A stretch of DNA of 64,000 nt from sequence record JX128257; one strand, given 5' to 3'. The position numbers were made by a program, and so were the translations under genes. Below are positions 18,886 through 36,570 of the stretch, in pieces. Below the pieces are notes generated by a model. The model saw only the letters and a list, made by a program, of their open reading frames with translations, was not told where the DNA came from and searched no databases. Each line of letters starts with the position of its first letter. Positions within the stretch are counted from its first letter, which is position 1. Origin of the DNA: Escherichia phage ECML-4.

Positions 18886-18887
18886 AA

Positions 18888-20078
18888 ATGGCCGATTTCC
18901 TGAGTCAATATACAGGTCAGCAGATAGATCAGATATTGGGTTCTGTTGATGACAAAGTAAGTAAAAATGACGTTATTAACGATTTTGAAGTTAACGACCC
19001 GTTGTTTCCACCATCTGCTCGCCTGACTTATGAGTTGAAAAGGTCTGTGGATACGATTAATGATACCCTGACCAACAAAGTTATAAGAACGGATAGTGGC
19101 GAACAGACAATCAACGGTAAGAAGACATTTAATGCGCTGTTGGTTACTAACGGGGGAATCCAAGTCCCCACTGGGAAATCTGTTTCAATCGCGGACGAAC
19201 CAACCAACTCAACAGACGGTGTCAACCTGAGTATGTTGAGGAAACATGGTGTCAGTGAAGACACCGCGCCAGATGGGTCTGGTTTGGCTGGGGAATTATT
19301 GACTTCCGGATATTACAAATTCAAACTGGATTTTAACAGATTGGCTGCGTATACGGAATTAACTCTCCCAACATCAGTTCCCGTGCAAACAGATTCTGGA
19401 GTTCGCACATGGTCAATGACTGCATTTTTTAATGCGTTATTTGCCGACGACCGTTTTAACGGTTATGTAACGACGACCACGTATGATGCCGACATGTTGA
19501 GTCTGGAGTCTCAGCTTAACAATATCAACACGACGTTGAACGGCAAAGTCAACACGTCAACTTACAACACAAAAATGGCTTCGTTGGATTTGAGTATATC
19601 CAACATTAACACATCTTTGAGCAACAAGGTTGAGGTCAGCACATATAATACGAAGATGACTTCCTTGGACGGCAGTATCAGTTCTCTCACGACTGGTAAG
19701 GTCGATGTATCAACGTATAATGCCAAAATGACCACAATTGATAACAGTTTGGGGAACGCTGTTTATCGCACCAAAACAAACTTGTCATCACTGACAGTAT
19801 CGGCTTCTGGAACAACAGCTCTGCCAGACTTTGATTTGGTGAAACTTTGCCAGATATTGGTAACAGCACAATGGGGTACAGGAGATGTCGTAGACACATA
19901 TCGTGTCACCATAACTCGAGACGGGACGATTAAGTCTGAGCTGCTGATCCAGAAAAGTACGAGCGGAACTGTGACGTTTACGGGTTCTGTAGTTGGTGGG
20001 AAACTGAGGATTTCTGTTGTCAATGCCAATACGACAACACCTTGCTCAGTCGATTATTCTATTACAGCATCTTTCTAA
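18888..20078 (+). CDS. fibre-like protein with tandem roughly 20-aa repeats
   Basis: Repeats such as VNTSTYNTKMASLDLSISN / VEVSTYNTKMTSLDGSISS / VDVSTYNAKMTTIDNSLGN; ATGGCC start 3 nt after the upstream stop. Confidence 0.55.
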   Translation: MADFLSQYTGQQIDQILGSVDDKVSKNDVINDFEVNDPLFPPSARLTYELKRSVDTINDTLTNKVIRTDSGEQTINGKKTFNALLVTNGGIQVPTGKSVSIADEPTNSTDGVNLSMLRKHGVSEDTAPDGSGLAGELLTSGYYKFKLDFNRLAAYTELTLPTSVPVQTDSGVRTWSMTAFFNALFADDRFNGYVTTTTYDADMLSLESQLNNINTTLNGKVNTSTYNTKMASLDLSISNINTSLSNKVEVSTYNTKMTSLDGSISSLTTGKVDVSTYNAKMTTIDNSLGNAVYRTKTNLSSLTVSASGTTALPDFDLVKLCQILVTAQWGTGDVVDTYRVTITRDGTIKSELLIQKSTSGTVTFTGSVVGGKLRISVVNANTTTPCSVDYSITASF

Positions 20079-20124: not shown

Positions 20125-23100
20125 ATGGCCAACAAACCAACACAGCCTCTTTTCCCTTTGGGTTTAGAAACTTCGGAGTCTTCGAACATAAAAGGCTTCA
20201 ACAACTCCGGCACCATAGAGCATTCCCCTGGTGCAATATTGACGTTCCCTGAAGATACTGATGTTGCGGGTCTCCCATCTTCTGTGCGTTACAATCCTGA
20301 TAGTGATGAATTCGAAGGTTATTACGAAAATGGCGGGTGGTTGTCTTTGGGCGGCGGTGGAATACGCTGGGAAACGCTCCCATACGCTCCCTCCAGCAAT
20401 CTGTTAGAAGGGCGCGGCTATCTCATTAATAACTCCACTGGGACTTCTACGGTGGTTCTTCCTTCCCCTACGCGCGTTGGTGACTCGGTTACAATTTGTG
20501 ATGCCTATGGTAAATTCGCGACGTATCCATTGACCGTATCTCCAGCGGGAAATAACCTGTACGGCTCCACCGAAGATATGACGATATCCACCGATAACGT
20601 GTCGGCGACTTTCACTTGGTCTGGTGCTGAGCAGGGTTGGGTTGTTACATCTGGTGTTGGCCTCGGTCAAGGTCGTGTGTACAGTCGAGAGATTTTCACT
20701 CAAATTTTAGCATCTGATACAAATGAAGTGACTCTCAACATCCCTCCGACAATTGTGGACGTGTACACTGATGGGAAACGCCTTACAGAATCCAAATATT
20801 CTTTAAATGGAAACGTAATCACTTTCGACCCTTCTTTACCTGCTGGCACTGAATTGCAGGTAATAGAATATACTCCGATTCAGTTAGGTACTGGCGGCGG
20901 GGGTTCGGGCGCTTCTGCAATCACCTGGATTTACAATGGCGGATCCGCTATCGGCGGCGAAACCGAAATAACGCTAGACATCGTTGTAGATGATGTTCCG
21001 GCTATTGATATAAACGGGTCTCGTCAGTACAAAAATCTTGGATTCACGTTCGACCCATTGACGAGTAAAATCACTCTGACGCAAGAACTGGAACCAGAAG
21101 ATGAAGTTGTTGTGGTTATAAATGGGACACCAAACATCTATAACCAGATCGATCGTTCTTTACAGGAAGTTGCTCGCGCCTACAATTTTACAAATGCTCA
21201 AGTTATTTTGAGCAACGATTATACTTCTGTGCTGGATAATAAAGTCGTTATTTATGATACGACATCCCAACGTTCTTGGGGGATTCCATCTGGAATTCCA
21301 GCAGGTTCTACAGTGGTTTCCGTCAATGGGGATCAACTGAAATACAAAAATGGATCAACTGAAACCACTGTTACATTGGTGAGCGTACCAGGTAGTGCAG
21401 AGAAGTTGAAGAACGATCTGGCGTCGAACTCTGGCGCGGGTATGTTGAAAACTTCTAGAGGTGATACCGTAGAAGAAGAATTGACTTTTATTAATCAGAA
21501 TATGGTCGTTCAAATTTCAGATTTCGCGAGCCTTAGAACTTTAGTGCCAGCCACAGCGGGCATCCGAGTCAAATTGAAAGGTTATTATTCTGGTTCTGAA
21601 ATTGGTGGCGGAGAATTCATTTCCGTCGCTGGTGATGCTGTTGATGATGCTGGGATGATTGCTCGAGTGTCAAGCAGCTTCTATTGGAAGAGAATTATCG
21701 ACAAACATATTACTCCTGGTATGTATGGCATCAAAGGGAATCTTCCAGAAGATCCGGCAGTGAAACTGAACGCTATGTTTGCGGCTGCGGCTGCGGCTAA
21801 CGCTTATGTCTTACTGAACGATGTCGATACTCTGGTCTGTAAAAGCCCTGTCGTGATCCCAGCACATTCATTAGTGTACGGCAACAAGCGGACCATATTG
21901 AAACGTGATGCATCGTTGTCATATGCTAATGATTTCTTGACAATTATGAATGATTCATATGTCAAGGGGATCTATGTTGATGGTAGCCGTTTAGATTCTC
22001 AGACTCCGCTAGAAGCAGTTTTGGTGCGCATCGCTGGGAATGTGACTATCCATAAGAGCGAGATCCGAAACAATGCTGGCTATGGCGTTGTTGGTAACGC
22101 AGTCCCTGGCATTCGTATCACCAAGAACATTTTTTCCAACTTCGCCAAAGGTTGTGTGGCTATGTTTGGTGACGGAACGGCGACGAGTGATGATCTGCAA
22201 ATTAATGATAACAGATTCTTTAACCTGGGCGCGGGAACCATTTATGTTGGCGGTTACTCAAACTTCCTTGTCGACAAAAACGTCGGAAGAGGCACTTACG
22301 TGGGTTCTCCAGGAAACCGTCTGTATGTTGTGACCAATACCAACGGGACTATCACCCAAAGCGCTGGGCCAGATTTTGGGGCGCTGAAAACGGGTATGTT
22401 CTTTGTATTGCCTGGTGGTTCTGAACATATGATAACGGCAGTCAACAGCCTTACAAGTGTGACAGTAACCCCAGCACCTCCGTCGAATGCAACGGTTCGT
22501 GCAATTGCTGGGACAGGGGATCTTCTGGGCATCCAATCATGCTCCTACGGCACCATCAGCCGTAACAACCTGACCGATTGTGTGACTTACGGAACTGGTG
22601 GAGGCACGATGGAGGGGAGCACTCTGGGGTGCAATTATGTCACATGGGAAGACAACTTCATCCGCAACACAGGTAAGAACGGAATCAACGTCGGGCAATC
22701 AGGCGCTGGGGTCGCCACGTGTTCAATCCTGAGGAACACTCTGATACAGGTTGGTAACGGCGGTCAGGGTGTTGGCCCAGCGTATCTTCTGCCTTGGTTC
22801 GATACGGTAGGTATTGCTCTGTATCAGGGAAACCCAGGTTATATGGCGAATATGGACGTCAGTGATAACAACGTCTCTACATGGTCTGGCGATCTGAATG
22901 ACGGCGCTGCTTGGTTTGGTATGAGCGGTTGTACGGAAGCCACTGTGACTTGTACAGGCAACAAATCTTCTGGTTATTCCGACGGCTATGTTCGTGGAGA
23001 TATATTAGAAGTCACGTTGACAGGTTATGGTACAGGGGCGGCTGCGACTTCATTCGTTAGTGATGGTGAGTCTATACAGATAACTGTTCAAACAGGTACT

Positions 23101-23298
23101 TCACCAACAGCTTCTCCTTATTTTTCAGTGCGGAAGGCGATCCGCACCCGCCATCAACCGATGATAACGGCGCAGATCGTCACCACAACTGGGAACATGT
23201 CTCATTGTTGGGGTATGCAATCTAGTACAGCAGGAAATTGGATGGTGGGTCAGAATACAACTCCTTCAGGGGTCACGACGTATTACGCAAAAGGGTAA
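20125..23298 (+). CDS. tailspike protein with large N-terminal assembly region and beta-helix-like domain (1057 aa)
   Basis: N-terminal block shared with the 926-aa tailspike (DRSLQEVARAYNFTNAQVILSNDYTSVLDNKVVIYDTTSQRSWGIP vs DRSIQEIARSANVKDSEVIVSTDTISLLDGKKVVYDIAAQTSYGLP); Gly/Asn-rich repetitive C-terminal region typical of beta-helix depolymerases. Confidence 0.7.
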   Translation: MANKPTQPLFPLGLETSESSNIKGFNNSGTIEHSPGAILTFPEDTDVAGLPSSVRYNPDSDEFEGYYENGGWLSLGGGGIRWETLPYAPSSNLLEGRGYLINNSTGTSTVVLPSPTRVGDSVTICDAYGKFATYPLTVSPAGNNLYGSTEDMTISTDNVSATFTWSGAEQGWVVTSGVGLGQGRVYSREIFTQILASDTNEVTLNIPPTIVDVYTDGKRLTESKYSLNGNVITFDPSLPAGTELQVIEYTPIQLGTGGGGSGASAITWIYNGGSAIGGETEITLDIVVDDVPAIDINGSRQYKNLGFTFDPLTSKITLTQELEPEDEVVVVINGTPNIYNQIDRSLQEVARAYNFTNAQVILSNDYTSVLDNKVVIYDTTSQRSWGIPSGIPAGSTVVSVNGDQLKYKNGSTETTVTLVSVPGSAEKLKNDLASNSGAGMLKTSRGDTVEEELTFINQNMVVQISDFASLRTLVPATAGIRVKLKGYYSGSEIGGGEFISVAGDAVDDAGMIARVSSSFYWKRIIDKHITPGMYGIKGNLPEDPAVKLNAMFAAAAAANAYVLLNDVDTLVCKSPVVIPAHSLVYGNKRTILKRDASLSYANDFLTIMNDSYVKGIYVDGSRLDSQTPLEAVLVRIAGNVTIHKSEIRNNAGYGVVGNAVPGIRITKNIFSNFAKGCVAMFGDGTATSDDLQINDNRFFNLGAGTIYVGGYSNFLVDKNVGRGTYVGSPGNRLYVVTNTNGTITQSAGPDFGALKTGMFFVLPGGSEHMITAVNSLTSVTVTPAPPSNATVRAIAGTGDLLGIQSCSYGTISRNNLTDCVTYGTGGGTMEGSTLGCNYVTWEDNFIRNTGKNGINVGQSGAGVATCSILRNTLIQVGNGGQGVGPAYLLPWFDTVGIALYQGNPGYMANMDVSDNNVSTWSGDLNDGAAWFGMSGCTEATVTCTGNKSSGYSDGYVRGDILEVTLTGYGTGAAATSFVSDGESIQITVQTGTSPTASPYFSVRKAIRTRHQPMITAQIVTTTGNMSHCWGMQSSTAGNWMVGQNTTPSGVTTYYAKG

Positions 23299-23348: not shown

Positions 23349-25232
23349 ATGATTTCTCAATTCAATCAACCACGCGGCTCCACTTCCATAGAAGTTAACA
23401 AACAATCTATCGCTCGAAATTTCGGTGTCAAAGAAGACGAAGTCATTTATTTCACTGCTGGTATTGATCTCAGTGGATTTAAAGTAATTTATGATGAGTC
23501 TACCCAACGGGCTTATTCTCTCCCTTTCGGTATTGTTTCAGGGACAACTGCAATTAGTCTGGATGAAAGAGCTATCCTCACTCATTCCGCTGGCTCTGTT
23601 GACCTTGGGGAATTAGCAGTAAGCCGCGAAGAATATGTGACTTTACCTGGTTCTTTTAATTTCGGCCATACCATTAATGTGAAAAATGAACTTCTTGTTC
23701 ACGATGATAAAAAATATCGATGGGATGGCACATTACCTAAAGTTGTTCCTGTTGGATCAACTCCTACAACAACTGGGGGAATTGGGGTTGGTGCATGGTT
23801 GAGTGTTGGTGATGCATCGCTACGTGGTGAATTATTTTCAGAATACATCTTATACAAAACACCTCAGGCATTTGGTGCTATTGGTGATGGAGTTGCTGAT
23901 GACACTTTATCACTGCAAGATGCAATGGATTACTGTCAGGTTCACAACGAGAAACTTGTTATCCCATCAGGACGCTATCGAATCACCAAGCCACTGCTAT
24001 ATCGCAACCAGGGTTTTTATAACTATGAGATTGAAGGGCAGGGAGGTGCTGCTGTAATCATCATGGATTCTCTGGAAAAAACTGGAATTACTGCTCCTGA
24101 TGCCTTTGGCGATGATTTTAACGTTAACGCAGCGATGGTAGTTCTGAATGACACTAACCAGAGTAAGTATTGCCGCATTAGTGGATTGCGTTTCGAATCA
24201 CCAGTTGGTGCTGAATATGCTATTTATGTTGGTCAGGCAGAAAATACGTATATCCATGACTGCTTCTGGACTGGTTTCACCTTTGGGTGGTATGACCTTG
24301 GATCATGGGTTACACGCGTAGAACGCTGTATTGCCAGGGATATTGTAGATACTGGGTTCTTTAAGAAAAATGGCACCAGTACCTACATAGCTGAGTGTTA
24401 TGCAGACAGGATGATGCGAGGGTATTACCTCGGGGGTGGGTATTCGGCTATCATAAATTGTGCTTGCGATTTAACCACTCGCTGGGGGTTCTATCTATAT
24501 GGTGGTAGGACTGGTTCTGATTTAGCAACATTCTCTATTAAAGGTTGTGGTTCAGAGCAGTCTGGAACTGATTCTGTATTTTATGTTGACGGGCTAGTTG
24601 CGCTGTCTATAGAGGACCACAACGCAGGTAATGACCCAACTGTTCAACCAGCACCTGCTGCGTTGCTTAGCATGGCTTCGAATACATCATATTCACAAGT
24701 GGTGCTGAAAAATATTAGGACAGTAAATGTGGATACATTAATTTTGGATTCTGCTGACCATAATTATTTTGATTTAACAAATGTCACATGCCGCAGCGAG
24801 ATGTCGAAAGAATTTTATCTCGGTACGAATTCAAGAGTTTTAAAAAGGTCATATGATGGTGAAAGATTCATTACTAGCAACGACCAAGTTGGCATTGGCT
24901 TTGCGGAGTCTGATATTGTTGATGGATGGACAGATCTCACTTTGTCTGGACTAAGAAATGGACAATTTATAATTAGGAGGACTGTAAGCATACCCAGAAC
25001 TTCAGGGGATGCTGGGGCGGTAACTATCACGATGCCATTAAATATGGATACGAATTATACCGTAGCTGCCACTCTGGAGGGTGAATTTAGTCAACTGCAA
25101 TCCATTTGCCCTGTGTTCAGTGTTACAGATAAAACATCATCTAGTTTTTCTTTGTGTGCATCGTCTGCAAAGAATAATACAACATGGTCAGCTATAGATG
25201 TTGAGGTGATTATATATGGGCTGAAATCGTAA
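23349..25232 (+). CDS. tailspike protein (627 aa)
   Basis: N-terminal about 150 aa shared with the 744-aa tailspike (MISQFNQPRGSTSIEVNKQSIARNFG vs MNPQFAQPKGSTSKESNKDSIARKFG; YRWDGTLPKVVP vs YRWNGSLPKVVP). Confidence 0.7.
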   Translation: MISQFNQPRGSTSIEVNKQSIARNFGVKEDEVIYFTAGIDLSGFKVIYDESTQRAYSLPFGIVSGTTAISLDERAILTHSAGSVDLGELAVSREEYVTLPGSFNFGHTINVKNELLVHDDKKYRWDGTLPKVVPVGSTPTTTGGIGVGAWLSVGDASLRGELFSEYILYKTPQAFGAIGDGVADDTLSLQDAMDYCQVHNEKLVIPSGRYRITKPLLYRNQGFYNYEIEGQGGAAVIIMDSLEKTGITAPDAFGDDFNVNAAMVVLNDTNQSKYCRISGLRFESPVGAEYAIYVGQAENTYIHDCFWTGFTFGWYDLGSWVTRVERCIARDIVDTGFFKKNGTSTYIAECYADRMMRGYYLGGGYSAIINCACDLTTRWGFYLYGGRTGSDLATFSIKGCGSEQSGTDSVFYVDGLVALSIEDHNAGNDPTVQPAPAALLSMASNTSYSQVVLKNIRTVNVDTLILDSADHNYFDLTNVTCRSEMSKEFYLGTNSRVLKRSYDGERFITSNDQVGIGFAESDIVDGWTDLTLSGLRNGQFIIRRTVSIPRTSGDAGAVTITMPLNMDTNYTVAATLEGEFSQLQSICPVFSVTDKTSSSFSLCASSAKNNTTWSAIDVEVIIYGLKS

Positions 25233-25270
25233 TTATTGTATTAAATAAATAACTTATCTTTTATTAAAAA

Positions 25271-25297
25271 ACCCCGCTTCGGTGGGGTTAGTTTTTA
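25271..25297 (+). terminator. rho-independent terminator
   Basis: ACCCCGC-TTCG-GTGGGGT followed by TAGTTTTT, downstream of the 627-aa tailspike gene. Confidence 0.6.
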
Positions 25298-25399
25298 GAA
25301 GTTGTTGATGGTAATCGGCGATGATTGCTCATTTTGTTTTGGGTAATTCTTCGATCTTCAGTCGTTAAACGCCATCATTGCTGCTTCCCATCCCAGCGC

Positions 25400-25414
25400 C
25401 ACACACACACACAC
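25400..25414. repeat. (CA)7 dinucleotide microsatellite in intergenic region
   Basis: CACACACACACACAC read directly at 25400-25414. Confidence 0.9.
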
Positions 25415-25531
25415 TATGCATCCGGCATTTAAAGATGCGGAAAGGTAATCAATCTGGCCTTCCTCCCAATCGCTAATTGTGTGGTCTTTCCTCTTGCTTC
25501 TGGTGTTTCTTTGTCCGGCGCTGGGAATTAT

Positions 25532-25831
25532 ATGGTAATTTCGGGAAACACGTTGATGGCTAATAACCCATCTGCGCCTGAAAATATAACTTTGTATCAG
25601 GTCACAGGTGCGCAGAGTTGGGTGGCCCATTATGAAACTATCAGATGTGTTCGAAATGATTTCAAATCTGCGCTGTTGGCGATTAATGCAACAGGGACAG
25701 CACAATCTGGTTTGAGTACTACCAATAAATTCTGGTTCGGGGATAACGCGACGATCAATACCACGGTTGTTTGTACTTATCCTGCTGGCAACAAAGCCAA
25801 CACCGATATCACTCAGACAGTTTCAGTTTAA
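25532..25831 (+). CDS. small Ser/Thr/Asn-rich protein (start uncertain)
   Basis: Track ORF 25481..25831 begins at GTG; first in-frame ATG at 25532. Composition resembles fibre-type domains. Confidence 0.3.
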   Translation: MVISGNTLMANNPSAPENITLYQVTGAQSWVAHYETIRCVRNDFKSALLAINATGTAQSGLSTTNKFWFGDNATINTTVVCTYPAGNKANTDITQTVSV

Positions 25832-25842
25832 ATTGAATTGAG

Positions 25843-25881
25843 CCTAAATACCCCATATTGGCAAATCCTTTATGGGGTATT
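25843..25881 (+). promoter_or_regulatory. late-promoter-like CTAAATA box embedded in 11-bp perfect inverted repeat
   Basis: AATACCCCATA (25847-25857) and TATGGGGTATT (25871-25881); same arms as the element at 23312-23345. Confidence 0.55.
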
Positions 25882-25886
25882 TTCAA

Positions 25887-28652
25887 ATGACCAGAAATGT
25901 AGAAGAATTATTCGGCGGCGTAGTCACAGCTCCCCACCAGATTCCTTTCACTTATAAATCAAGTGTCGGTGGAGAAACTTTCTTTTCTCTACCTTTCTAT
26001 CCTGTCACTGGTGTTGTCACAATCAACGGTGGTATGCAAGTTCCGTTAGAGAACTTCGAGATAGACGGGAATACGTTGAATCTCGGGCGCGCATTGTCCA
26101 AAGGCGATGTTGTGTATTGCTTATTCGATAAAATTCTTTCACCAGAAGACACTGCCAAAGGCATCCGCATATACAAATTTCAAGCCGTGGGTGGAGAAAC
26201 CGAATTCACGCCTGACTTTACTTCTTATGGTGTACAGTCTCTTTATATCGGTGGCGAATACAAAACTCCTGATATAGAATATTCATACAACAGTACGACT
26301 GGGAAAGTGTCTTTGCAAACTGCATTGACTGCAGGCGTTTGGGTAGTCGCTGAAATCTCTGTTAAACAACCGAATATCAGTCCGGCGTTTGACCGCAGTA
26401 TTCAAGAAATTGCCCGTTCTGCTAATGTGAAAGACTCTGAAGTCATCGTTAGTACGGACACCATATCTTTGTTGGATGGGAAGAAAGTTGTTTATGACAT
26501 AGCGGCACAAACCAGTTATGGTTTACCAACCATTCCTGATGGTTCTGTCATTTCTACGATCTCAGACGGGAAATTGAATTACAACCCAGGTGATGTGCAG
26601 GTTGATTTGTTGCCTTTAGAAGATTCATTTATTAATGTGATAAACACTCTGGGGCGCAATGATGGTGCCAAGTATATCGGAGAATGCCATTCTGTTGCTG
26701 ATCTCAGGAATACTGAACCCACTATGGATGGACAACGCATTATTCTTAAGCAACACACTGCGGGTACTCTTCTTGGTGGAGGGGTATTCCGTGCGTTAAT
26801 TGATGGTACAGGAAAGACTGATGATAACGGTACTGTGATCAAAACTGTTGGCGGCGCAGCCTGGTTACGTGTTAATGCTGATAGAGTTAACCCATTCATG
26901 TTTGGTGCTTTGGGTGGTTCTAATGATGATACTATTCCAGTACAATCTTGTGTGGACAGTGGTAAGGCCACACAATTAACTGGTATACATTACGTTAGCA
27001 ATATCCAGTTAAAATATAATACGTCGTCTATTTATGGGTCTGGATTACATTACTCCAGGTTGCATCAGTTGCCTTCTGCTACTGGGAATTGTATTACCAT
27101 AAAAGATACATGCTCCCTTATTGTATTAGACTCCTTTGGGGTATATGGCACAGGTGCACAACAAGGCACATCATTTACTGCGGGTACAACAGGTATCTAT
27201 ATAGAAACTCCTTCAGGTCTCTCAGCCGATTATCCGTTCCACACTACCGCAGACCCAAGACGCGACTTGTGTATTTCTAAGGTCCATATAGCAGGTTTTG
27301 ATGAATATGGGTTAAATATTGATAGTGGTAACTTTAGTGTTACTACAGATTCTCTTTTAGTCAACCACATCAATCAGGTGGGCGTCCGTTGTGCTACTAC
27401 TGATTGGACTTGGACAAATATCCAGGTTAATACCTGCGGTAAACAATGTCTGGTTCTTGATGGTTGTGGTAATGGTCGTATTATTGGTGGTAAATTCATT
27501 TGGGCTAACTGGCAACCTTATGGTACAGTAGGACAGTTCCCAGGCATTACTATTAATAATAGCCAGAATATGGTTATTAATGGTATTGAGGTACAAGATT
27601 GTGGCGGGAATGGCATTGAGATTAGCGATTCATATTCAATTTCCATGAACGGATTGAACACCAATCGTAACGGCATCAACGCTAACAACACTTTCTACAA
27701 CATCGTATTTAACAAAAGTGATGCAGTTATCAACGGATTCGTAGGACTCAATTATGCCGCGAATAGTGGTTCAGGTGCTAACTCTAGTGCGGGCAATTTT
27801 CAGTTCCTGTCTAATGATTGCAGCGTCACCATTAATGGTGTGGTTGAGACTGGTTATATGGGCATTAACTTTATTGGTGATAACAATATTATCAACCCCA
27901 CAAATTCCGACCTGAGCATTAACGGATTGGTTAATTATTCCAAGACTGGTTTGCAAACCATGAACGAGACCCCTACATTTGATGGTGTTAGCACTACACC
28001 TGTTTATGTAAGTGTCCCATCTTCTGTAGGGCAAGTAAATGGTCTGAGACTATCACAAGCCAACAAAGATAAATTACTGTACTCAAGAACAGCAGGTCCA
28101 GAAGGTATTACCATGGCTGCTGTTGTAGTACCTACCATATCTGGAGCTGAAGTATTTAACTTCATGGCCATTGGTTCAGGGTTTAGTGATACATCCAACA
28201 GTCTTCATCTTCAATTAGTTATAGACGCTTCCGGAAAACAAACAATTGCTTTGCTATTGGGGGGCGATGGTACAACCCAAATTTTATCTGGGGATTTACC
28301 TAACGACCTTAAACTACAAAGTGGTGTGCCATATCATATAGCTATTGGTGCTAAACCTGGATATTTCTGGTGGAGTATTCTTAATATTCAGACGGGTAAG
28401 AGAATCAGACGGTCATTCCGAGGCGCTTATTTAGCTGTACCATTTAATTCTATATTCGGATTAACTTCTTCATTAACATTCTTCTCGGATAGCAATGCTG
28501 GTGGGGATGCCTGTTCTGGTGTAGGTGCTAAAGTGTATGTTGGTATGTTCTCTTCTGAGAATGATTATGTAGCTTCACGGTACTACAACCTGATTAATCC
28601 TGTAGACCCTAATAAGTTAATTAGTTACCGTATATTGGATTCTTCTATTTAA
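25887..28652 (+). CDS. tailspike protein with beta-helix-like domain (922 aa)
   Basis: Start set at ATG 25887 (MTRNVEEL), downstream of the hairpin; track ORF begins at 25872 inside the hairpin. Shares N-terminal module with the 1057-aa tailspike. Confidence 0.7.
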   Translation: MTRNVEELFGGVVTAPHQIPFTYKSSVGGETFFSLPFYPVTGVVTINGGMQVPLENFEIDGNTLNLGRALSKGDVVYCLFDKILSPEDTAKGIRIYKFQAVGGETEFTPDFTSYGVQSLYIGGEYKTPDIEYSYNSTTGKVSLQTALTAGVWVVAEISVKQPNISPAFDRSIQEIARSANVKDSEVIVSTDTISLLDGKKVVYDIAAQTSYGLPTIPDGSVISTISDGKLNYNPGDVQVDLLPLEDSFINVINTLGRNDGAKYIGECHSVADLRNTEPTMDGQRIILKQHTAGTLLGGGVFRALIDGTGKTDDNGTVIKTVGGAAWLRVNADRVNPFMFGALGGSNDDTIPVQSCVDSGKATQLTGIHYVSNIQLKYNTSSIYGSGLHYSRLHQLPSATGNCITIKDTCSLIVLDSFGVYGTGAQQGTSFTAGTTGIYIETPSGLSADYPFHTTADPRRDLCISKVHIAGFDEYGLNIDSGNFSVTTDSLLVNHINQVGVRCATTDWTWTNIQVNTCGKQCLVLDGCGNGRIIGGKFIWANWQPYGTVGQFPGITINNSQNMVINGIEVQDCGGNGIEISDSYSISMNGLNTNRNGINANNTFYNIVFNKSDAVINGFVGLNYAANSGSGANSSAGNFQFLSNDCSVTINGVVETGYMGINFIGDNNIINPTNSDLSINGLVNYSKTGLQTMNETPTFDGVSTTPVYVSVPSSVGQVNGLRLSQANKDKLLYSRTAGPEGITMAAVVVPTISGAEVFNFMAIGSGFSDTSNSLHLQLVIDASGKQTIALLLGGDGTTQILSGDLPNDLKLQSGVPYHIAIGAKPGYFWWSILNIQTGKRIRRSFRGAYLAVPFNSIFGLTSSLTFFSDSNAGGDACSGVGAKVYVGMFSSENDYVASRYYNLINPVDPNKLISYRILDSSI

Positions 28653-28706: not shown

Positions 28707-30941
28707 ATGAATCCGCAATTTGCTCAACCAAAAGGTTCTACTTCAAAAGAATCGAACAAAGACAGTATTGCTCGTAAATTTGGGTGTAAAAAGTCGGAAG
28801 TCGTTTATGCGAAATCAGGACAGTCCTTGTCTGGATATAAGGTTATTTATGACAAGGAAACACAGAGAGCGTATTCCTTGCCTGTAGATATTCCAGCAGG
28901 AACCACGGCTATTAGCCTTAGCGCCAGTGCTCTGCTTGTACACTCTGGGGGTTCTGTAGACCTGGGCGAACTAGCTTCCCAACGCAATGAATATAATGTA
29001 TTACCTGGTTCTTTTACTACTGGTGCAATAGTATCCACAAAGAATGATGTACTTACCCACAATGGTATCCAGTATCGTTGGAATGGTTCATTACCTAAAG
29101 TTGTACCTCAGAACTCTTTACCATCCAGTGATGATAATTGGATTGGCTTGGGTGCTTCTTATCTGAAGGAACAGCTTAACAGTACCAGTGGTGCATCCAT
29201 GGTAGTACTGGCTAATGGCAAAACCATTGAAGAAGAATTTGCCGAAGAAGCTGCATGGCAGAACCAAGAGAATATGGTGAGAACCGTTATTCCTAATGTT
29301 TATCACCATATCCGTGGCGTTCAGCGTCACTCTGGTAAAAACTTAGCATGGTCTGCTCCAGACGTTGCTATTGATAAACTTAACCCTACGGATACCGTCT
29401 TCTACCGTATGCCCCAGATTGTTAAAACTGGTGATGGTACTCTGATGATTTTCTGTAATGAGTTGCATGGTAACAATACAGATATTGGTGCTACTCCAGA
29501 TCAGCAATGTAATATCGTTATGAAATACTCCATTGATAATGGGTGGTCTTGGTCGGCTAAGGTAGTGGTAGCTAACTTTGGGGCTACGTATCAGAACGGT
29601 GAGATTGCTGCTGTGTATAACCCAGTAGATGGTCGGGTATACTGTTACTTTACTTCCTGCAAAGGCCAGTTGGGTTGGGGATACTCACAGCCAGGCAATG
29701 ACCCTAATACATCATCCCAGATATATGTTACCTACTGTGATGCGGAAGCTCCTACTATATGGCGTACACCAGCTAACATTACTGCTACCCTTAAGCCAGC
29801 AACGGCAGATTTTATCTGGACTTCACCAACTAAACCAGTTGTTTTACCGGATGGTAAGATGGCAATGATTGTGTCTACCGTCACTGGTTCACGGGTTGAT
29901 TCTTTCCTTACCATCATGAAGTATGACATTAAGTACAGCATGGACTACGTACTTAGTTCCGAAGAATCTGGTGGGGAAGTCGGACTGAACCTTTTGCCGG
30001 ATGGTCGTATGGTGATGAACTCTCGTGCTTACCACACCACAGACCTTAAAGGGCTTCAGAAATTCTATATCAGTGATCATCAGTTTAAGAACTGGCAGCA
30101 CTTATCTGATTTAGTTACATCGGATAGTAAGGGTGACCTGGTTCCTATTTTTGATGGGGTTAATGGTGTTCTTACTTGGGCGTTTACTTGTGCTAATGGT
30201 GTAGGTGATAATTCTATTGGTCGTACTAACTACCGAGTATGGATTAGTCGTGACCTAGTTACTTGGGGGTTAGCTCCTACTGGGGATATCAACACAAGTG
30301 ATTCTGTTGGGTACATCGCATCAATGCCTGGTGGTGATGATGGTTATGTAATCTCTACATCTGAATCAGGTGGTTTTGGTGGTATTTGGTTTACTCAATG
30401 GAATGCTAAGTATATCCAGAACAGAAACTACAACCGCTATCACAAAGAGTTGCGAGAATTAGAGTCAGTAGATGAAACAGCAATGCTCGCATCCGGCGCT
30501 ATTCCTAACTACTCTTTTTACGTAAACAAAGACTCCAACCTAATTAACTTCAACCGCAACGGTACTCCAGTTAAGATTCAGCAATTGGGGGTTAGTCAGA
30601 ATGCTGTTGATAAGTACACTACAACTCAGACCCTAGCATCTATTCCTGTAGATGGTGTTGATATTGTATTAGTCACTGGTTCCGGTATTACTCTTACCCT
30701 TAGTGGGTTTAGCGGTGGATATATGGGCCAGCGTGTGACAGTTATCTCTGATTCATCTGGTGGTGGGGTAGTGCTTAAACGTGCTGATACAACATTGCCT
30801 ACTGTAACGGACAGATTCCACTTTAATGTGGCAGGAGCCTTTACTGCTTTGAGGGTAGACTATGCAACTAAGATGATGGTTACTTTAGTTAAGACTCCAT
30901 CTGGTTGGTTCACGGAAAGTATTGCTAACGTAACAATCTAA
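28707..30941 (+). CDS. tailspike protein with sialidase-like (BNR/Asp-box) domain (744 aa)
   Basis: Shared N-terminal module with the 627-aa tailspike; YRMP motif resembling the sialidase (F/Y)RIP motif, followed by Asp-box SIDNGWSW (SxDxGxTW pattern). Confidence 0.65.
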   Translation: MNPQFAQPKGSTSKESNKDSIARKFGCKKSEVVYAKSGQSLSGYKVIYDKETQRAYSLPVDIPAGTTAISLSASALLVHSGGSVDLGELASQRNEYNVLPGSFTTGAIVSTKNDVLTHNGIQYRWNGSLPKVVPQNSLPSSDDNWIGLGASYLKEQLNSTSGASMVVLANGKTIEEEFAEEAAWQNQENMVRTVIPNVYHHIRGVQRHSGKNLAWSAPDVAIDKLNPTDTVFYRMPQIVKTGDGTLMIFCNELHGNNTDIGATPDQQCNIVMKYSIDNGWSWSAKVVVANFGATYQNGEIAAVYNPVDGRVYCYFTSCKGQLGWGYSQPGNDPNTSSQIYVTYCDAEAPTIWRTPANITATLKPATADFIWTSPTKPVVLPDGKMAMIVSTVTGSRVDSFLTIMKYDIKYSMDYVLSSEESGGEVGLNLLPDGRMVMNSRAYHTTDLKGLQKFYISDHQFKNWQHLSDLVTSDSKGDLVPIFDGVNGVLTWAFTCANGVGDNSIGRTNYRVWISRDLVTWGLAPTGDINTSDSVGYIASMPGGDDGYVISTSESGGFGGIWFTQWNAKYIQNRNYNRYHKELRELESVDETAMLASGAIPNYSFYVNKDSNLINFNRNGTPVKIQQLGVSQNAVDKYTTTQTLASIPVDGVDIVLVTGSGITLTLSGFSGGYMGQRVTVISDSSGGGVVLKRADTTLPTVTDRFHFNVAGAFTALRVDYATKMMVTLVKTPSGWFTESIANVTI

Positions 30942-30947
30942 AATACA

Positions 30948-30974
30948 AGCCCCCAATAAGGGGGCTTTCTTTTG
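30948..30974 (+). terminator. rho-independent terminator
   Basis: AGCCCCC-AATAA-GGGGGCT followed by TTCTTTTG. Confidence 0.65.
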
Positions 30975-31105
30975 CTATGTCTCGTTAACCTGACAGGAAC
31001 TGGAAGTTCAAAACTATCAGGTGGAGGAACTGGGTTTTTATTTCTATCTGTTTGTTGGCTGTATACTAAATATCTCTATAAAATGGCACTAGATGGAGCA
31101 TCAAA

Positions 31106-34100
31106 ATGCAATCTACAAATTTAAACCGTCGCCCGTATTGGGATGACTGGAATCCTGGGAAACGTTTTTCACGGATTCTTTTTCGTCCGATGCCTATCAA
31201 GGTTCAGACTCGCGAACTGAACCAGATGCAGACTATTCTTCAGGATCAAATTGAAAAACTGGGCAACCATCTGTTCAAAGATGGTTCTATGGTTATCCCT
31301 GGCGGTCTGACGATCACCAATGCCGCAGTCTCTTTGAAATTCACTTTGGCGGGTGGTACTGAATTCACCGATCTGGAAGGTATTTCTGAACTCTACGTTT
31401 TGGGGAAAGACAATAACGCCAAAGCGCGTGTGTTGTCTCTTGAACGTGATCTGTCTGCTCCTGATACGATGTTGGCCATCCTTGAGATGACTGAAGCGGG
31501 TAATGCTGACGGATTCCATGTTAACGATAATCTGTATTTCCAGACTTACGACGTGAATGATAATTTCATTCGTATTGGTTATGGGATCGCGGCTGCTGTA
31601 ACTGGTTCTATCGTTGCTCGTATGACGAAAGGCGTTTACTTCATTCGTGGGATGTTCCTTGATGTTGATGACGCGACTCTCATCGTCGATAAAACTTCAA
31701 ACACTTCTTCCCATCGCGTCGGGTTTAAAGTCACCGAAACCATCGTGACTGAATCTGAAGACGAATCCCTTTATTCAAACGCTCAGGGAACGATTAACTC
31801 CAAAGCCCCAGGCGCTCATCGTCTTCGAATAGATCTGGTCTTATCTCGATTTGATTATGATGCTGTGGTTGAAGACTTTGTTGAACTGGCCAAAGTTCGT
31901 GATGGTAAAATCCAGTCTATGGTGACTCAGTCCACCTATAATATTCTGGAAGACACGTTGGCTCAACGGACGTATGAAACCAACGGCGATTACAACGTTT
32001 CAACGCATCAGATCGACATCCGCGAACACCTGAAAGTCAATAACAATGGTGGAGTATTCAATGCTGCTGATGGCGGCGACGAAAGTAAATTCGTGTCTGT
32101 AATGAAACCAGGTATTTCCTATGTTCGCGGTCGTCGTATCGAAAACGTCGGGGAAGAGTTGGTGATCGTTGACAAGGCACGGGATACCGATGTCCTGAAT
32201 AACACGCCTGTCGCAGTTGCTACAGGGAATTATCTGGTCACCAAGAACTCCAAAGGTGTTCCAGTAATATCTCGCACTGTGCGATACAAGTTATTGAACG
32301 CATCCGGCGCTACTCAAGCCACGGCGTTGTGTATATCCGCTGAACGCAATTCAACTGAATTCCGCCTGTACATGCGTGATTTAGTTGTGACTGGGGACGC
32401 GTCCACTATCACCAAAGTGTCTTATGAAGAAAGTGGGATCACCATGTTTTCTGCTGAACTGGAATCCAACCAGTTTAACCAGAGTTCTATGGTAGACCTG
32501 ATCTTCTCTCTTCCGGTCTTCGGTGTTAAAACATTAGCGCCAACAGGTTCCGTGGATATCAACTACACAGTCCTCAGAACTTATAAGGTGACGCTAGACA
32601 GCAGCGGTTCTGGTTCTATTTCAGCCCCGCTGGGATATAGTTTTTCCCCAGAATTTTCGTTGTACTCTGCAGCGAAATCAGATGGTTCGGAAGCGCAGTT
32701 CGATATCTCTGGCTCTTTGTCTTTGACTGGTTCTCCGGTCGGTTCGGCGCTGCAGATTTCTCTGGGTAGTGGTAATGCTAACCAGTCAATCAATTTGCTG
32801 GCGCTGATGATTCGTACCACGGCCACAATCAAAACGAAGACCATCACTGAAACAACTGAAACAGTGACGTTCACATCACAGACCAGCCGTCCTTTGGCGA
32901 ATCACGATGGTTGGAAATTGGTATCGGTCAAAAACGATACTGGCGCAGACGTGACCTCTAGCTTCGTTCTAGATGGTGGACAGCGTGATGCAGGGTATTA
33001 CAAGTCTAACTTGTTATCCAGCGCTGGAGCAATCTCAGGGACGTATACAGTGGTGTATCAATACTTCGCCCACAGTTCCGGTGATTTCTTCTCTGCTGAT
33101 TCGTATACTTCGATGGATTATAAAGATATCCCGAATTATACATCTTCTACATCAGGCGCGGTGTACGGCCTGGCAGATAGTTTAGATTTCCGTCCGAAAA
33201 TCACCAACGGAACTTCTGACACAGATATGGTTCGTCCAAACACTGCAGTTATTCTGGACACAGAATATTATCTGCCGCGTATCGACGCGATTTATCTGGC
33301 AGACAACGGTGTGTTTGGTGTGGCTCGAGGCATCAGTTCTAATAATCTGGCTTCTCCAGCAATCCCAGCGAACGCCATGCGTTTGTATGAATTGTTGATC
33401 CCGCCGTATACACCGAATATTGATGATATCCAAATTCGAACTATTGATAATCGTCGTTATACAATGCGCGATATCGGTAAACTGGAAACCCGTATTTCCA
33501 ATGTTGAATACTATACCTCTCTGTCACAGCTGGAATCTTCAGCGATGACACAGCAAGTGTTTGACCCCATCACGGGTAATCCTCGTTTCAAAAATGGTAT
33601 TGCAGCTGATCCGTTCAAAGACTTCCGGTTGATTGATGACTTGTCTGAAGATTGGATGGGTTCTATCGATACCGAAAACGGACGTCTACGCCCGTTTGTA
33701 CAACAGAACGTTGTTGACATGACTCCGGTTGGCTGGAACAAAGTGATGGATGGGATGGTGGTTTGTAATTACACACCTGAAATCTCAGTGAACCAAGAAT
33801 ATGCGACGACGACGATCAACGTTAACCCGTATGCAGTATTCAATTGGGAAGGTTTCTTGAAGATTAACCCGACCACAGACTACTGGTTCGAAAACTATTA
33901 TGTTGCCCCGCGTATTATTAATGAAACGATCAACACCCGTGGTACTGTACAAGAAGGTTCAGTGTACGGAACATGGCGGACTGTTTCTGTTTCTGATCGT
34001 GTTTGGGAGCCGCATGGTGCTGGTGGTGTGTGGTGGGGATATCGTTACCGCACGACTGTTTCTGCCCGTGATGTCACCACATATACATACACGGACAAAA

Positions 34101-35944
34101 CAACCACGACCATGACTGGTGAACAGATTGTGGAGACGCAAGTTATCCCATACATGCGCGAGATCGATATTTCTTTCGACGCATCTGGACTGCGACCTTT
34201 CACTCGTATGTATGCGTTCTTCTCTGGTCGTGACGTCAATCTGTATTGCAAACCGAATGGTGGTAATTTCGGTGACCCAATCACCACTGATGCCAATGGT
34301 GCTGTTAAAGGTGTATTCCGCGTTCCACAGAACGATACAATCAAGTTCAACACAGGCGACAACGTGTTCCGCTTAACGGATAGCCCTGTTGACAGTAAAT
34401 CTGCGGATGATACACTGACCAATGCAGAAATTGTTCATAAATCTTTCGGTAAGAAACAAGGTATTCAAAAGACCTTTGTCAACACTCGTGTCCTGGGTTA
34501 CACTGCCAGTACTCGCACCGAAACCAGCACTTCTGAAGTTGTGGTCGACCAATGGCGTGATCCGATTGCCCAATCGTTTATGGTAGCGACTAAGAATGGC
34601 GGCGAGTATATCGAAGGCGTGGAAGTATTCTTCTCTACCAAGTCACGTGATGTTCCGATCACTCTGGAAATTCGCGAGATGGAGAATGGCTTACCTTCTC
34701 ATACAGTCATTACTCGTAAAACTTTGAACCCGTCTGAAGTGACGATCTCTACAGACTCTTCCGGCGGTACGAAGTTCACCTTTGATTATCCGGTGTATCT
34801 GCAAGCATCGACTGAGTTTGCTATCGTTTTGTTGGCGAATACCCAGGATTACAACGCGTATATCGCGGAAATGGGCAAGAAAAACCTTCTGTCCAACGAA
34901 TATATCGCCAAACAACCGTATACAGGGGTGTTCTTCACTTCTTCAAACGGTTCTACATGGTCTCCAAACCAAATGGCTGATATGAAATTCCGCATATATC
35001 GTTGTAACTTCGCTGCGGGACAGAACGTTGTAACATTTGATTCGAAGCTCGGGCCAAAACAACGTCCGTTGGGATTGAATACTCTGAACTGCGTGAGTGG
35101 GTCTTCTGTTGTGACTGTGTTTGCACCTGGTCATGGTTTGGTTGCTGGGAACAATGTTACTCTTTCTGAATTGACAGGTGGTTGTGGCTTTACTCCTGAA
35201 CAACTTAACAAAACGTTTACTGTGACAGATGCGAGCTATACTTCATTCAAGATTGATGTTGGCGCAGCAGCAGACAGCAACGGTCAGATTGGTGGCGACA
35301 ACGCATCTTTCTTGGGAAATTATCTGGTTGATATGTTCTATGCCAGCGTTACCAATTCGGCTCTGGAAGGTTCAATATTGAAACTGGAATATCGTTACCG
35401 CGATGCCACTTCAAACTCCATGTCGGATTGGGCTGAATTTGAAACTGATACTGATGTTGCTCTGCCGACTGAAGGTATCTATCGCCAGGTTGGTGACTTC
35501 CAGATTCGTGCTACTATGACTCGTAGTGAAAACAACGTGTACACAGCACCGATGATTGATGGTGATGACCTAAGTGTAATCTTCAACTCTTATGGCGTAG
35601 ATCCTTTTGAAGACGTTTTCAAATATGTCACAAAGGACATTGGTTTCGATAACCCATGTTCGACTGTGAAACTGTTCTTCGGGGCGATGCTGCCTTCTCA
35701 ATCCTCCATGAAGGTGCAGGTAAAACTGCTCCGAGCAGGGCAAGAGATGGATAGCGTGGATTGGGAAGACGTTACTCCAACTTCGCCTCTGGTTAACGAC
35801 GGTTCTACATTCTTTGAATATGAGTATGATAAGACTGTGGCAAGCAACAATCCGTTCGTTGGACTGAAAGTCAGAGCACTTGTAAGGGGGAACCGAGTTG
35901 CTCCTCCTTCATTCAAAGACTTCCGTCTTATTGCTCTGGCATAA
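31106..35944 (+). CDS. giant virion structural protein (1612 aa), function unknown
   Basis: Single uninterrupted ORF within the late structural block, preceded by a CTAAATATC late-promoter-like box at about 31063. Confidence 0.6.
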   Translation: MQSTNLNRRPYWDDWNPGKRFSRILFRPMPIKVQTRELNQMQTILQDQIEKLGNHLFKDGSMVIPGGLTITNAAVSLKFTLAGGTEFTDLEGISELYVLGKDNNAKARVLSLERDLSAPDTMLAILEMTEAGNADGFHVNDNLYFQTYDVNDNFIRIGYGIAAAVTGSIVARMTKGVYFIRGMFLDVDDATLIVDKTSNTSSHRVGFKVTETIVTESEDESLYSNAQGTINSKAPGAHRLRIDLVLSRFDYDAVVEDFVELAKVRDGKIQSMVTQSTYNILEDTLAQRTYETNGDYNVSTHQIDIREHLKVNNNGGVFNAADGGDESKFVSVMKPGISYVRGRRIENVGEELVIVDKARDTDVLNNTPVAVATGNYLVTKNSKGVPVISRTVRYKLLNASGATQATALCISAERNSTEFRLYMRDLVVTGDASTITKVSYEESGITMFSAELESNQFNQSSMVDLIFSLPVFGVKTLAPTGSVDINYTVLRTYKVTLDSSGSGSISAPLGYSFSPEFSLYSAAKSDGSEAQFDISGSLSLTGSPVGSALQISLGSGNANQSINLLALMIRTTATIKTKTITETTETVTFTSQTSRPLANHDGWKLVSVKNDTGADVTSSFVLDGGQRDAGYYKSNLLSSAGAISGTYTVVYQYFAHSSGDFFSADSYTSMDYKDIPNYTSSTSGAVYGLADSLDFRPKITNGTSDTDMVRPNTAVILDTEYYLPRIDAIYLADNGVFGVARGISSNNLASPAIPANAMRLYELLIPPYTPNIDDIQIRTIDNRRYTMRDIGKLETRISNVEYYTSLSQLESSAMTQQVFDPITGNPRFKNGIAADPFKDFRLIDDLSEDWMGSIDTENGRLRPFVQQNVVDMTPVGWNKVMDGMVVCNYTPEISVNQEYATTTINVNPYAVFNWEGFLKINPTTDYWFENYYVAPRIINETINTRGTVQEGSVYGTWRTVSVSDRVWEPHGAGGVWWGYRYRTTVSARDVTTYTYTDKTTTTMTGEQIVETQVIPYMREIDISFDASGLRPFTRMYAFFSGRDVNLYCKPNGGNFGDPITTDANGAVKGVFRVPQNDTIKFNTGDNVFRLTDSPVDSKSADDTLTNAEIVHKSFGKKQGIQKTFVNTRVLGYTASTRTETSTSEVVVDQWRDPIAQSFMVATKNGGEYIEGVEVFFSTKSRDVPITLEIREMENGLPSHTVITRKTLNPSEVTISTDSSGGTKFTFDYPVYLQASTEFAIVLLANTQDYNAYIAEMGKKNLLSNEYIAKQPYTGVFFTSSNGSTWSPNQMADMKFRIYRCNFAAGQNVVTFDSKLGPKQRPLGLNTLNCVSGSSVVTVFAPGHGLVAGNNVTLSELTGGCGFTPEQLNKTFTVTDASYTSFKIDVGAAADSNGQIGGDNASFLGNYLVDMFYASVTNSALEGSILKLEYRYRDATSNSMSDWAEFETDTDVALPTEGIYRQVGDFQIRATMTRSENNVYTAPMIDGDDLSVIFNSYGVDPFEDVFKYVTKDIGFDNPCSTVKLFFGAMLPSQSSMKVQVKLLRAGQEMDSVDWEDVTPTSPLVNDGSTFFEYEYDKTVASNNPFVGLKVRALVRGNRVAPPSFKDFRLIALA

Positions 35945-35996: not shown

Positions 35997-36245
35997 ATGC
36001 GTGGAATGAAAGTACAGGGGCACGCATCCATGTTGAGAAGCAGTTCTTGCCCTGGCGCGATTATTTGCACCGATCACGCCGCTGGTATGGCTGCATTGCA
36101 AGCCCGTCAACGCAATGAAACCCGTGAAGCCACCATTGTTGAACAATCAAACCAGATATCTAATCTGGAGGCAACAATCAAAATGATGGCCGAAAAGTTG
36201 GGGATTGAAATCCCCGAAGGAGGTCAGAATGGCGACGCAAGCTGA
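35997..36245 (+). CDS. small hypothetical protein
   Basis: ORF 35958..36245 in track; start at ATG 35997 preferred on spacing. Low support. Confidence 0.3.
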   Translation: MRGMKVQGHASMLRSSSCPGAIICTDHAAGMAALQARQRNETREATIVEQSNQISNLEATIKMMAEKLGIEIPEGGQNGDAS

Positions 36246-36570
36246 AAGAACGGGGCTTGACATCCGTGGTATCTTAACCGCTGTCGTGGCTTCTGCATTG
36301 GTCTCTGCGGCATCATTCCTTTGGTTCATGGGCGGGATGGAAACGCGCGTGAATGTATTGGAACGAGATTCCAACAAGATGGATCAAGTTCTTCAGAAAG
36401 TGAATGACATGAGTGAACGTATGGCGATCATGAATACTGACCTCGCATATGTCAAACAAAACATGGCTGAGTTAAAACTCAATAGTAGCAGTCTTTCAGA
36501 TGATGTTCGCACACTGCGGATTACTGTATCTGATTTGCAGCAAAAGGGGAATAACAATGGCCGTCAATAA
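36229..36570 (+). CDS. membrane-anchored coiled-coil protein
   Basis: Hydrophobic segment ILTAVVASALVSAASFLWFMGG followed by a heptad-like charged region; start position uncertain. Confidence 0.4.
   Translation: MATQAERTGLDIRGILTAVVASALVSAASFLWFMGGMETRVNVLERDSNKMDQVLQKVNDMSERMAIMNTDLAYVKQNMAELKLNSSSLSDDVRTLRITVSDLQQKGNNNGRQ

Follow-up and report, generated by a model that had tools for sequence, protein, structure and literature searches.

The 64,000-nucleotide (nt) stretch of Escherichia phage ECML-4 analysed here (sequence record JX128257; hereafter the window) contains a single open reading frame (ORF) at 31106..35944 on the + strand, which starts with ATG and encodes 1612 amino acids (aa; 1612 codons plus stop, ~178 kDa). 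This ORF is vriC, also written vrlC. With a probability of roughly 0.78, its product is a conserved DUF4815 baseplate protein of the Ackermannviridae and a long-form homologue of the tripod protein of the Herelleviridae, as represented by gp119 of Staphylococcus phage 812 and gp106 of Listeria phage A511. An earlier note on the same DNA, written without database searches, had described a 4.8-kb ORF for a giant structural protein, with exact coordinates and length. The gene itself is already catalogued: it is named in hundreds of records and serves as a landmark of the family, and both its similarity to the baseplate proteins of A511 and phage 812 and its interpretation as baseplate prongs were published in a 2024 review (PMC11721090). 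Added by the present analysis are the end-to-end homology to a solved tripod, the mapping of three insertions of the long form, and the finding that two other readings, as an anchor hub and as a virulence factor or sialidase, lack support.

In Pfam, VriC matched PF16075 (DUF4815) at 206.8 bits (cut-off 30; E 6e-61), a domain also carried by all 120 listed homologues. PHROGs searches returned families of 'unknown function' only, and NCBIfam searches gave no match. When PDB sequences were searched with phmmer, the sole real match was a 1152-aa 'DUF4815 domain-containing protein / ORF65' (E 1.9e-51), a chain present in 15 PDB entries including 9EUF, 9EUI, 9EUJ and 9EUK. These four entries are structures of the baseplate of Staphylococcus phage 812 (PMC13433997, EMBO J 2026). 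The 1152-aa chain was identified as the tripod gp119 from the Kayvirus gene order, in which it follows the 1019-aa and 173-aa genes (PMC13433997). That order runs from baseplate J (348 aa) through the arm scaffold gp117 (1019 aa), the arm segment gp118 (173 aa) and the DUF4815 tripod gp119 (1152 aa) to an unnamed protein of 52 aa, the receptor-binding protein RBP1 gp121 (640 aa), an unnamed protein of 124 aa and RBP2 gp123 (458 aa). A profile built from 42 VriC relatives was aligned with the 1152-aa tripod by hhalign, and the two proteins were collinear from VriC residues 2-1612 to tripod residues 1-1151 (probability 100, E 3e-108), with ~26% identity in the alignable core.

Structural models of VriC were predicted with AlphaFold in two overlapping segments, using 60-sequence alignments. 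The mean predicted local distance difference test (pLDDT) score was 76 for residues 1-1000, where the model was confident for 14-815, and 81 for residues 901-1612. In Foldseek searches of the PDB, chains of the phage 812 baseplate were the only significant matches of both halves, with E 8e-22 for the N-terminal half and E 2e-23 for the C-terminal half (template modelling (TM) score 0.50 over 736 columns, pre-contraction chain 9euf_0). For the C-terminal half, the next-ranking match was to CBM22 carbohydrate-binding modules in tandem (4xup, probability 0.99). In the viral BFVD, the named top matches were DUF4815 or VrlC proteins of many phages. The earlier note had recognised no domains by eye and had proposed a domain search and structure prediction in segments as checks; the domain question is now resolved as DUF4815 together with a tripod-type architecture. 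Its suggestion of a baseplate protein is supported by homology, the only solved relative being the baseplate tripod of phage 812.

Three long helices were predicted in the VriC models (residues 32-56, 281-293 and 787-815), the remainder being beta-rich, and they match the three 'spine' helices described for the phage 812 tripod (PMC13433997). The hhalign comparison revealed three sizeable insertions in VriC, besides small ones, and the three beta-rich insertions make up most of the difference between 1612 and 1152 aa. All segments are given here with their positions on the + strand. The conserved N-terminal segment (aa 1-64, 31106..31297; PYWDDW...VQTRELNQMQ), with helix 32-56, aligns to tripod residues 1-62. 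It is followed by insertion 1 (aa 65-178, 31298..31639), an all-beta domain without counterpart in the 1152-aa tripod and present in all relatives of ~1600 aa. The conserved core at aa 179-360 (31640..32185), which aligns to tripod 82-242 and includes helix 281-293 with the motif LAQRTYE, is separated by insertion 2 (aa 361-586, 32186..32863) from a second core segment at aa 587-817 (32864..33556), which aligns to tripod 286-498. Insertion 2 comprises about two beta-sandwich-like domains that are mostly missing from the phage 812-type tripod. The second core segment ends in helix 787-815 (NRRYTMRDIGKLETRISNVEYY); this third helix and its surroundings, NRRYTMRDIGKLETRISNVEYY, are the best-conserved stretch of VriC, and the helix is presumed to form the trimer axis.

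The end of the DUF4815 region (aa 818-1005, 33557..34120), with the motif NVNPYAVFNW, aligns to tripod 499-674. It was modelled with low confidence as a monomer, which an intertwining of the chains within a trimer would explain. Two confidently modelled beta-sandwiches follow at aa 1006-1339 (34121..35122; tripod 675-966, PHROG 5986), which resemble carbohydrate-binding modules in Foldseek. The second of these starts at an invariant DPIAQSF motif and is the only part common to VriC and VrlC.2 of Wolbachia phage WO. Insertion 3 (aa 1340-1415, 35123..35350) is a small beta domain that holds a sub-threshold Pfam match to Phage_spike_2 (residues 1351-1421), and the C-terminal beta domains (aa 1416-1612, 35351..35941) align to tripod 967-1151. 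The leg, anchor and hook domains named for the phage 812 tripod (PMC13433997) are probably located in this C-terminal end of the tripod. Overall, the C-terminal half is predicted to consist of beta-sandwich domains, some of which resemble carbohydrate-binding modules. All three insertions were found, essentially gapless, in every relative of ~1600 aa down to 31% identity, indicating that the long form is a stable sub-architecture.

Judged by its orthologue in phage Sajous1, VriC is a virion protein, as the earlier note had expected when it spoke of a structural protein; absence from purified virions, which the note had named as the refuting result, was not what the published data showed. Tandem mass spectrometry of caesium chloride (CsCl)-purified Sajous1 virions yielded 311 spectra for the VriC orthologue gp140, second only to the capsid protein (PMC10892097); the Sajous1 vriC gene is 96.4% identical in DNA to that of the window. 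The spectra reported were 924 for the major capsid protein, 311 for VriC gp140, 125 for tailspike protein TSP4, 113 for TSP1, 96 for TSP3, 89 for TSP2 and 89 for the tail sheath (PMC10892097). Per residue, VriC gave ~0.19 spectra versus 0.10-0.15 for the tailspikes, spectral counts being semi-quantitative only. The usual model for the Ackermannviridae assigns six trimers (18 copies) to each tailspike. If this holds, the spectra would fit at least 18 copies of VriC per virion, and possibly more.

Megablast assigned the window to Kuttervirus (Ackermannviridae). Matches to the vriC gene were obtained in 231 phage records, and in 230 they covered at least 80% of the gene, with a best DNA identity of 98.7%; the protein was 99.8% identical in phage FEC14, and 83-99% identical across phages of Salmonella, E. 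coli, Klebsiella and Dickeya. Conservation was even along the length of VriC, with no hypervariable module of the tailspike kind. Of 63 records matching the adjacent tailspike gene, only 14 contained it at full length, compared with 230 of 231 for vriC. This conservation of vriC while the tailspikes are swapped fits a host-independent role, not that of a host-range determinant. Comparative studies take vriC as a conserved landmark beside the tailspike cluster (PMC8432352, PMC11721090), and the records label it 'virulence-associated VriC protein', 'VrlC protein', 'DUF4815' or 'hypothetical'. The name vriC/VrlC was inherited from the virulence-related protein VrlC of Dichelobacter nodosus (PMC4701759). 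Two records with unexpected host names were also found: OR844942.1 ('Enterococcus phage Efm 3-10') contains a Kuttervirus vriC at 96% DNA identity and MN871475.1 ('Pseudomonas phage Pa-sanjiao') a Kuttervirus vriC product at 99.1% protein identity. Both are probably mislabelled or contaminated submissions.

In tblastn, relatives of VriC were detected in 1707 of 50,697 phage records, including T4-like cyanophages, phages of Staphylococcus, Bacillus, Listeria (A511 gp106), Enterococcus and Brochothrix, the Ackermannviridae, and phages of Vibrio, Rhizobium and Caulobacter. When the core (aa 701-1312) was used as query in an exhaustive phmmer search, 4776 clusters (50% identity) were recovered, of which 1923 had E <=1e-30; the DUF4815 relatives in them were ~950 to 2500 aa long. 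In bacterial genome collections, DUF4815 matches lay almost exclusively on contigs of metagenome-assembled genomes binned as archaea, Pelagibacter, Nitrosarchaeum, Parcubacteria and others; these contigs are probably mis-binned myovirus sequences. The Dichelobacter vrl locus, from which the 'virulence' name derives, was not among the matches when bacterial genomes were scanned for prophage copies.

Within this family, VriC shares with gp119 of phage 812 the Pfam domain DUF4815, a collinear sequence along the entire chain, an order of three long helices followed by beta-sandwich domains, abundance as a baseplate or virion protein, and a gene position within a late module of wedge and receptor-binding-protein genes. 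The homologues in A511 (gp106), SPO1-like Bacillus phages and Brochothrix phage A9 (gp108) showed ~27% identity in tblastn over VriC residues 676-1313; those of the Herelleviridae are of the short form, without the insertions of the Ackermannviridae. The phages with homologues of the A511 gp106 type have a double-layered baseplate, of which these proteins are components. The VrlC proteins of the Kyanoviridae (S-WAM1 gp154, Syn33 VrlC) also carry DUF4815 and showed ~32% identity over VriC residues 2-1300, but are longer (up to ~2470 aa), with other C-terminal extensions, and occur in phages that have kept T4-type gp7/gp8 wedge genes. The DUF4815 gene directly follows the gene of a gp8-like arm segment in Kayvirus and of a gp8-like wedge protein in cyanophage S-WAM1. 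In Kuttervirus the order is wedge, small wedge, structural protein, four tailspikes, VriC, two small genes, gp13 and gp14. Vibrio phage YC, whose VriC is 38% identical, has the same order, with one 1375-aa fibre replacing the four tailspikes.

In phage 812, tripod trimers dock by loops of their flap domains onto triangular docking loops of the arm scaffold, to which tripods and receptor-binding proteins are attached in parallel, the latter not being borne by the tripods; the tripods aim carbohydrate-binding-like domains at the cell, and upon contraction they rotate and refold, their leg domains shift by 88 Å, and tripod-tripod contacts stabilise the contracted baseplate (PMC13433997). By analogy, VriC would form homotrimers held together by the three 'spine' helices 32-56, 281-293 and 787-815. 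At the periphery of the baseplate, at least six such trimers per virion would be seated on loops of a wedge or arm protein, and they would represent the 'prongs' observed by electron microscopy under the Ackermannviridae baseplate. Candidate attachment partners could be the proteins encoded on the wedge side of the tailspike cluster (16215..20078, + strand), namely a gp6-like wedge protein (610-aa ORF), a 294-aa PF23786 wedge subunit and a 396-aa structural protein. Once the tailspikes have cut the O-antigen or capsule, the distal beta-sandwich domains could contact a conserved glycan of the cell surface, and the trimers might then change their fold or orientation and lock the baseplate in the post-contraction state. 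The host of the VriC phage is Gram-negative, so that the contacts with peptidoglycan and teichoic acid proposed for phage 812 cannot be transferred directly.

In T4, the genes of gp9-gp12 lie between the wedge genes and gp13/gp14, and their products are trimeric peripheral baseplate proteins in contact with the cell surface. VriC corresponds to them in position as an analogue, not as a homologue: PDB sequence and fold searches of VriC revealed no similarity to T4 baseplate proteins. T4-type gp9-gp12 are missing in the Ackermannviridae (PMC11721090), and VriC may take over the role of the T4 short tail fibres.

Several observations weigh against the assignment of VriC as a tripod-type protein of the baseplate periphery. 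The oligomeric state, copy number, attachment partner and ligand of VriC are all taken by analogy from phage 812. The monomer models were poor at residues 818-1003 and 1124-1150. TM scores of the N-terminal half to phage 812 chains were only 0.17-0.31, which is expected for multi-domain chains with insertions and which leaves a domain-by-domain equivalence to the phage 812 tripod unproven. Pfam and NCBIfam searches revealed no LysM or other named binding domain in VriC. No recognisable 1019-aa arm scaffold (gp117) or gp8-like arm segment (gp118) was found beside vriC in Kuttervirus, and nothing informative came from PDB sequence searches for these two components in which the 294-aa and 396-aa neighbours served as queries. 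In both Kuttervirus and Vibrio phage YC, tailspike or fibre genes separate the wedge genes from vriC. Finally, a search of the literature on DUF4815 and on cryo-electron microscopy of Kuttervirus or Ackermannviridae baseplates found no structural study, and neither a baseplate structure nor baseplate genetics.

The earlier note had regarded the protein as a baseplate or fibre hub that anchors the tailspike complex. In this form, VriC would be the baseplate platform for the N-terminal anchor domain of TSP4 and the whole branched tailspike complex would hang from it. The vriC gene is always found beside the tailspike cluster (PMC8432352), the baseplate partner of the TSP4 anchor domain has not yet been named (PMC8825819), and in contracted phage 812 a fibre domain of the tripod touches RBP2 (PMC13433997). 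The adjacency of vriC and tailspikes is, however, equally explained by the shared order of the T4-like late module, and the N-terminus of TSP4 carries an anchor domain of its own (PMC8825819). PDB sequence and fold searches of VriC gave no match to gp10 or to the N-terminal part of TSP4 (TSP4-N), and neither gp10-type XD1-XD3 domains nor a triple beta-helix anchor were found in it; in this phage, gp10-like XD domains are present in TSP4 and TSP2, not in VriC (cf. PMC11721090). The tripods of phage 812 do not carry the receptor-binding proteins, which attach separately to the arm scaffold (PMC13433997). Moreover, the DUF4815 family occurs in phages with unrelated fibres, i.e. in the Herelleviridae, in T4-like cyanophages and in Ackermannviridae of Vibrio. 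One of the latter, phage YC, has kept VriC at 38% identity together with the wedge genes, and its 1375-aa fibre showed no similarity to TSP4-N in BLASTP. A platform role is therefore unlikely, and by homology VriC would be peripheral and trimeric, not a central hub. An extended version, in which the VriC trimer is the receptor of the TSP4 anchor, so that the whole four-tailspike 'star' hangs from a tripod and cleavage of the O-antigen is mechanically coupled to refolding of the tripod and triggering of the sheath, must be considered equally doubtful. If true, it would be a role without precedent among known tripod proteins, and the three insertions would be docking surfaces.

A role of VriC as a mere passive filler in the structure of the baseplate periphery, involving neither receptor contact nor conformational change, appears still less probable. 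A purely architectural role would fit its high conservation across phages of different hosts, and no binding motif was identified in VriC. Homologous tripods, however, direct the lectin-like domains of their C-terminal part towards the cell wall and undergo extensive refolding upon contraction (PMC13433997), the C-terminal half of VriC resembles carbohydrate-binding modules, and the distal beta-sandwich domains, ~800 residues that thousands of relatives have conserved, are much for a filler. Least probable of all, and by a wide measure improbable in itself, is an enzyme (sialidase or depolymerase) or a phage-borne bacterial virulence factor. In favour of it are the database labels 'virulence-associated VriC/VrlC protein', the statement that VrlC-like domains are 'speculated to have sialidase activity' (PMC10199479), the sub-threshold Phage_spike_2 match and weak Foldseek matches to endosialidases (probability 0.2-0.54, TM ~0.12). 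Against it are the inheritance of the label from D. nodosus VrlC (PMC4701759), the lack of a catalytic domain in Pfam, NCBIfam and PHROGs searches, models of beta-sandwiches and helices for which Foldseek returned no beta-propeller or beta-helix enzyme at a significant level, and the abundance in virions of a protein whose only solved relative is structural. Membership of the tailspike/depolymerase class was also considered and rejected, as neither Pfam nor a significant Foldseek match revealed a catalytic domain of the right-handed beta-helix or beta-propeller type in VriC; the neighbouring tailspikes do carry Beta_helix or Tail_spike_N domains.

Ackermannviridae are used for the control of Salmonella and E. 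coli O157. The label 'virulence-associated protein' is still found in many Kuttervirus genomes intended for therapy or biocontrol and can raise false safety flags, while the evidence points to a baseplate structural protein of the tripod family and not to a virulence factor. VriC is the largest and among the most abundant of the tail proteins of the Ackermannviridae. Modules of the tripod type have so far been understood only in phages of Gram-positive hosts. How such a module works on a Gram-negative outer membrane, and whether VriC replaces the T4 short tail fibres, can now be approached with the phage 812 structures as a template.

The vriC ORF is considered real, since chance is excluded for an ORF of such length in DNA of 45% GC and since 230 of the 231 phage records that it matched carry it at full length. 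The start codon is supported by the N-terminus, which aligns with the phage 812-type tripod protein from residue 2, and a ribosome-binding site (GGAG, 31095..31098, + strand) was read from the letters 7 nt 5' of the ATG. An intrinsic terminator at 30947..30967 on the + strand (8-bp stem with six GC pairs, tail TCTTTTG) closes the preceding tailspike gene, indicating that vriC is the start of a new transcription unit. The late-promoter-like box that had been noted upstream is present as CTAAATATC, of the Ackermannviridae type, at 31066..31074 on the + strand, 32 nt 5' of the ATG, though it is not the T4 box TATAAATA. The consensus CTAAATAYC occurs nine times in the window, versus 0.9 expected, with seven copies on the + strand (16219, 20081, 23309, 25844, 31066, 37582 and 41832) and two on the - strand (8035 and 8514). 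Most copies on the + strand are located directly 5' of late structural genes, the genes behind them being those of the gp6-like wedge, three tailspikes, vriC, the gp14-like neck protein and the sheath. CTAAATAYC is probably the late promoter of the ECML-4 phage. The T4 box TATAAATA was not found 5' of vriC, one copy being present in the whole window at 53992, and was dropped as a late promoter; a further motif, CTATAAAA, was dropped as it showed no enrichment in the window.

The genes 3' of vriC are two small genes followed by neck genes similar to gp13, gp14 and gp15 and by those of the terminase, sheath, tube and portal, in agreement with the small membrane or coiled-coil proteins and neck genes expected from the letters alone. 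The first small gene (35997..36245, + strand), directly 3' of vriC, encodes an 82-aa protein that matched PHROG 4322 and, weakly, PHROG 473 ('virion structural protein'). The second (36229..36570, + strand) encodes a hydrophobic segment and then a stretch that, judged by eye and not by a predictor, is coiled-coil-like. A gene of PHROG 4322 or 473 (~80-105 aa) lies directly 3' of the DUF4815 gene in Kuttervirus, in Vibrio phage YC (L003, 16826-17143) and in cyanophage S-WAM1 (L072, 19404-19652); in S-WAM1 the small PHROG 473 gene is likewise followed further on by gp13/gp14. BLASTP gave no alignment between the small downstream protein and its cyanophage counterpart, the sole link being the common weak match to PHROG 473; the 82-aa protein of the window matched both PHROG 4322 and PHROG 473. 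The small protein may be a conserved partner or assembly factor of the vriC product. In Sajous1 virions, gp142 gave two spectra and gp141 was not listed (PMC10892097), these two products being assigned to the two small genes by gene order only.

The four tailspike genes that precede vriC, as the earlier note had also seen, extend on the + strand from TSP4 (20125..23298) through 23349..25232 and 25872..28652 to 28707..30941. The first 339 aa of TSP4 are nearly identical to CBA120 TSP4-N (7REJ, E 1e-205), i.e. to its baseplate-anchor and assembly domains, and the three further genes encode Pfam Tail_spike_N and beta-helix domains. The gap of 640 nt between two of them (25233-25871) is not empty. 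Positions 25489-25900 showed 99% identity to the junction 'tail spike 3 / Vi maturation-adhesion tail' of Vi01 and 25267-25495 showed 81-91% identity to other phages. An orphan ORF of 116 aa (25481..25831), contained in the Vi01-like part, may be the 3' end of another tailspike gene. The gap is probably the scar of an exchange of tailspike modules.

On the wedge side, the gp6-like ORF (16215-18047) is listed with a TTG start that overlaps the promoter-like box at 16219-16227, and its PHROG match starts at residue 18. The true start is probably ~17 codons downstream; the Guerrero orthologue has ~593 aa. The 294-aa protein (18001-18885) matched Pfam PF23786 ('phage baseplate wedge subunit', E 1e-153), covering just the first 272 of 978 profile positions, and is labelled 'head closure Hc2' in PHROG 3465 and 'Head closure' in Sajous1. 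Possibly it is a short wedge protein of the gp7 type that has inherited a wrong name. The 396-aa structural protein (18888-20078; PHROG 3838) showed a weak similarity at residues 53-98 to the N-terminal domain of BppL (BppL_N) or of the TP901-1 BPP (E 0.12). Its presumed orthologue by gene order, Sajous1 gp135, gave 74 spectra, or 0.19 per residue, equal to VriC. The 396-aa protein may be a further trimeric fibre-like protein or a stoichiometric partner of VriC.

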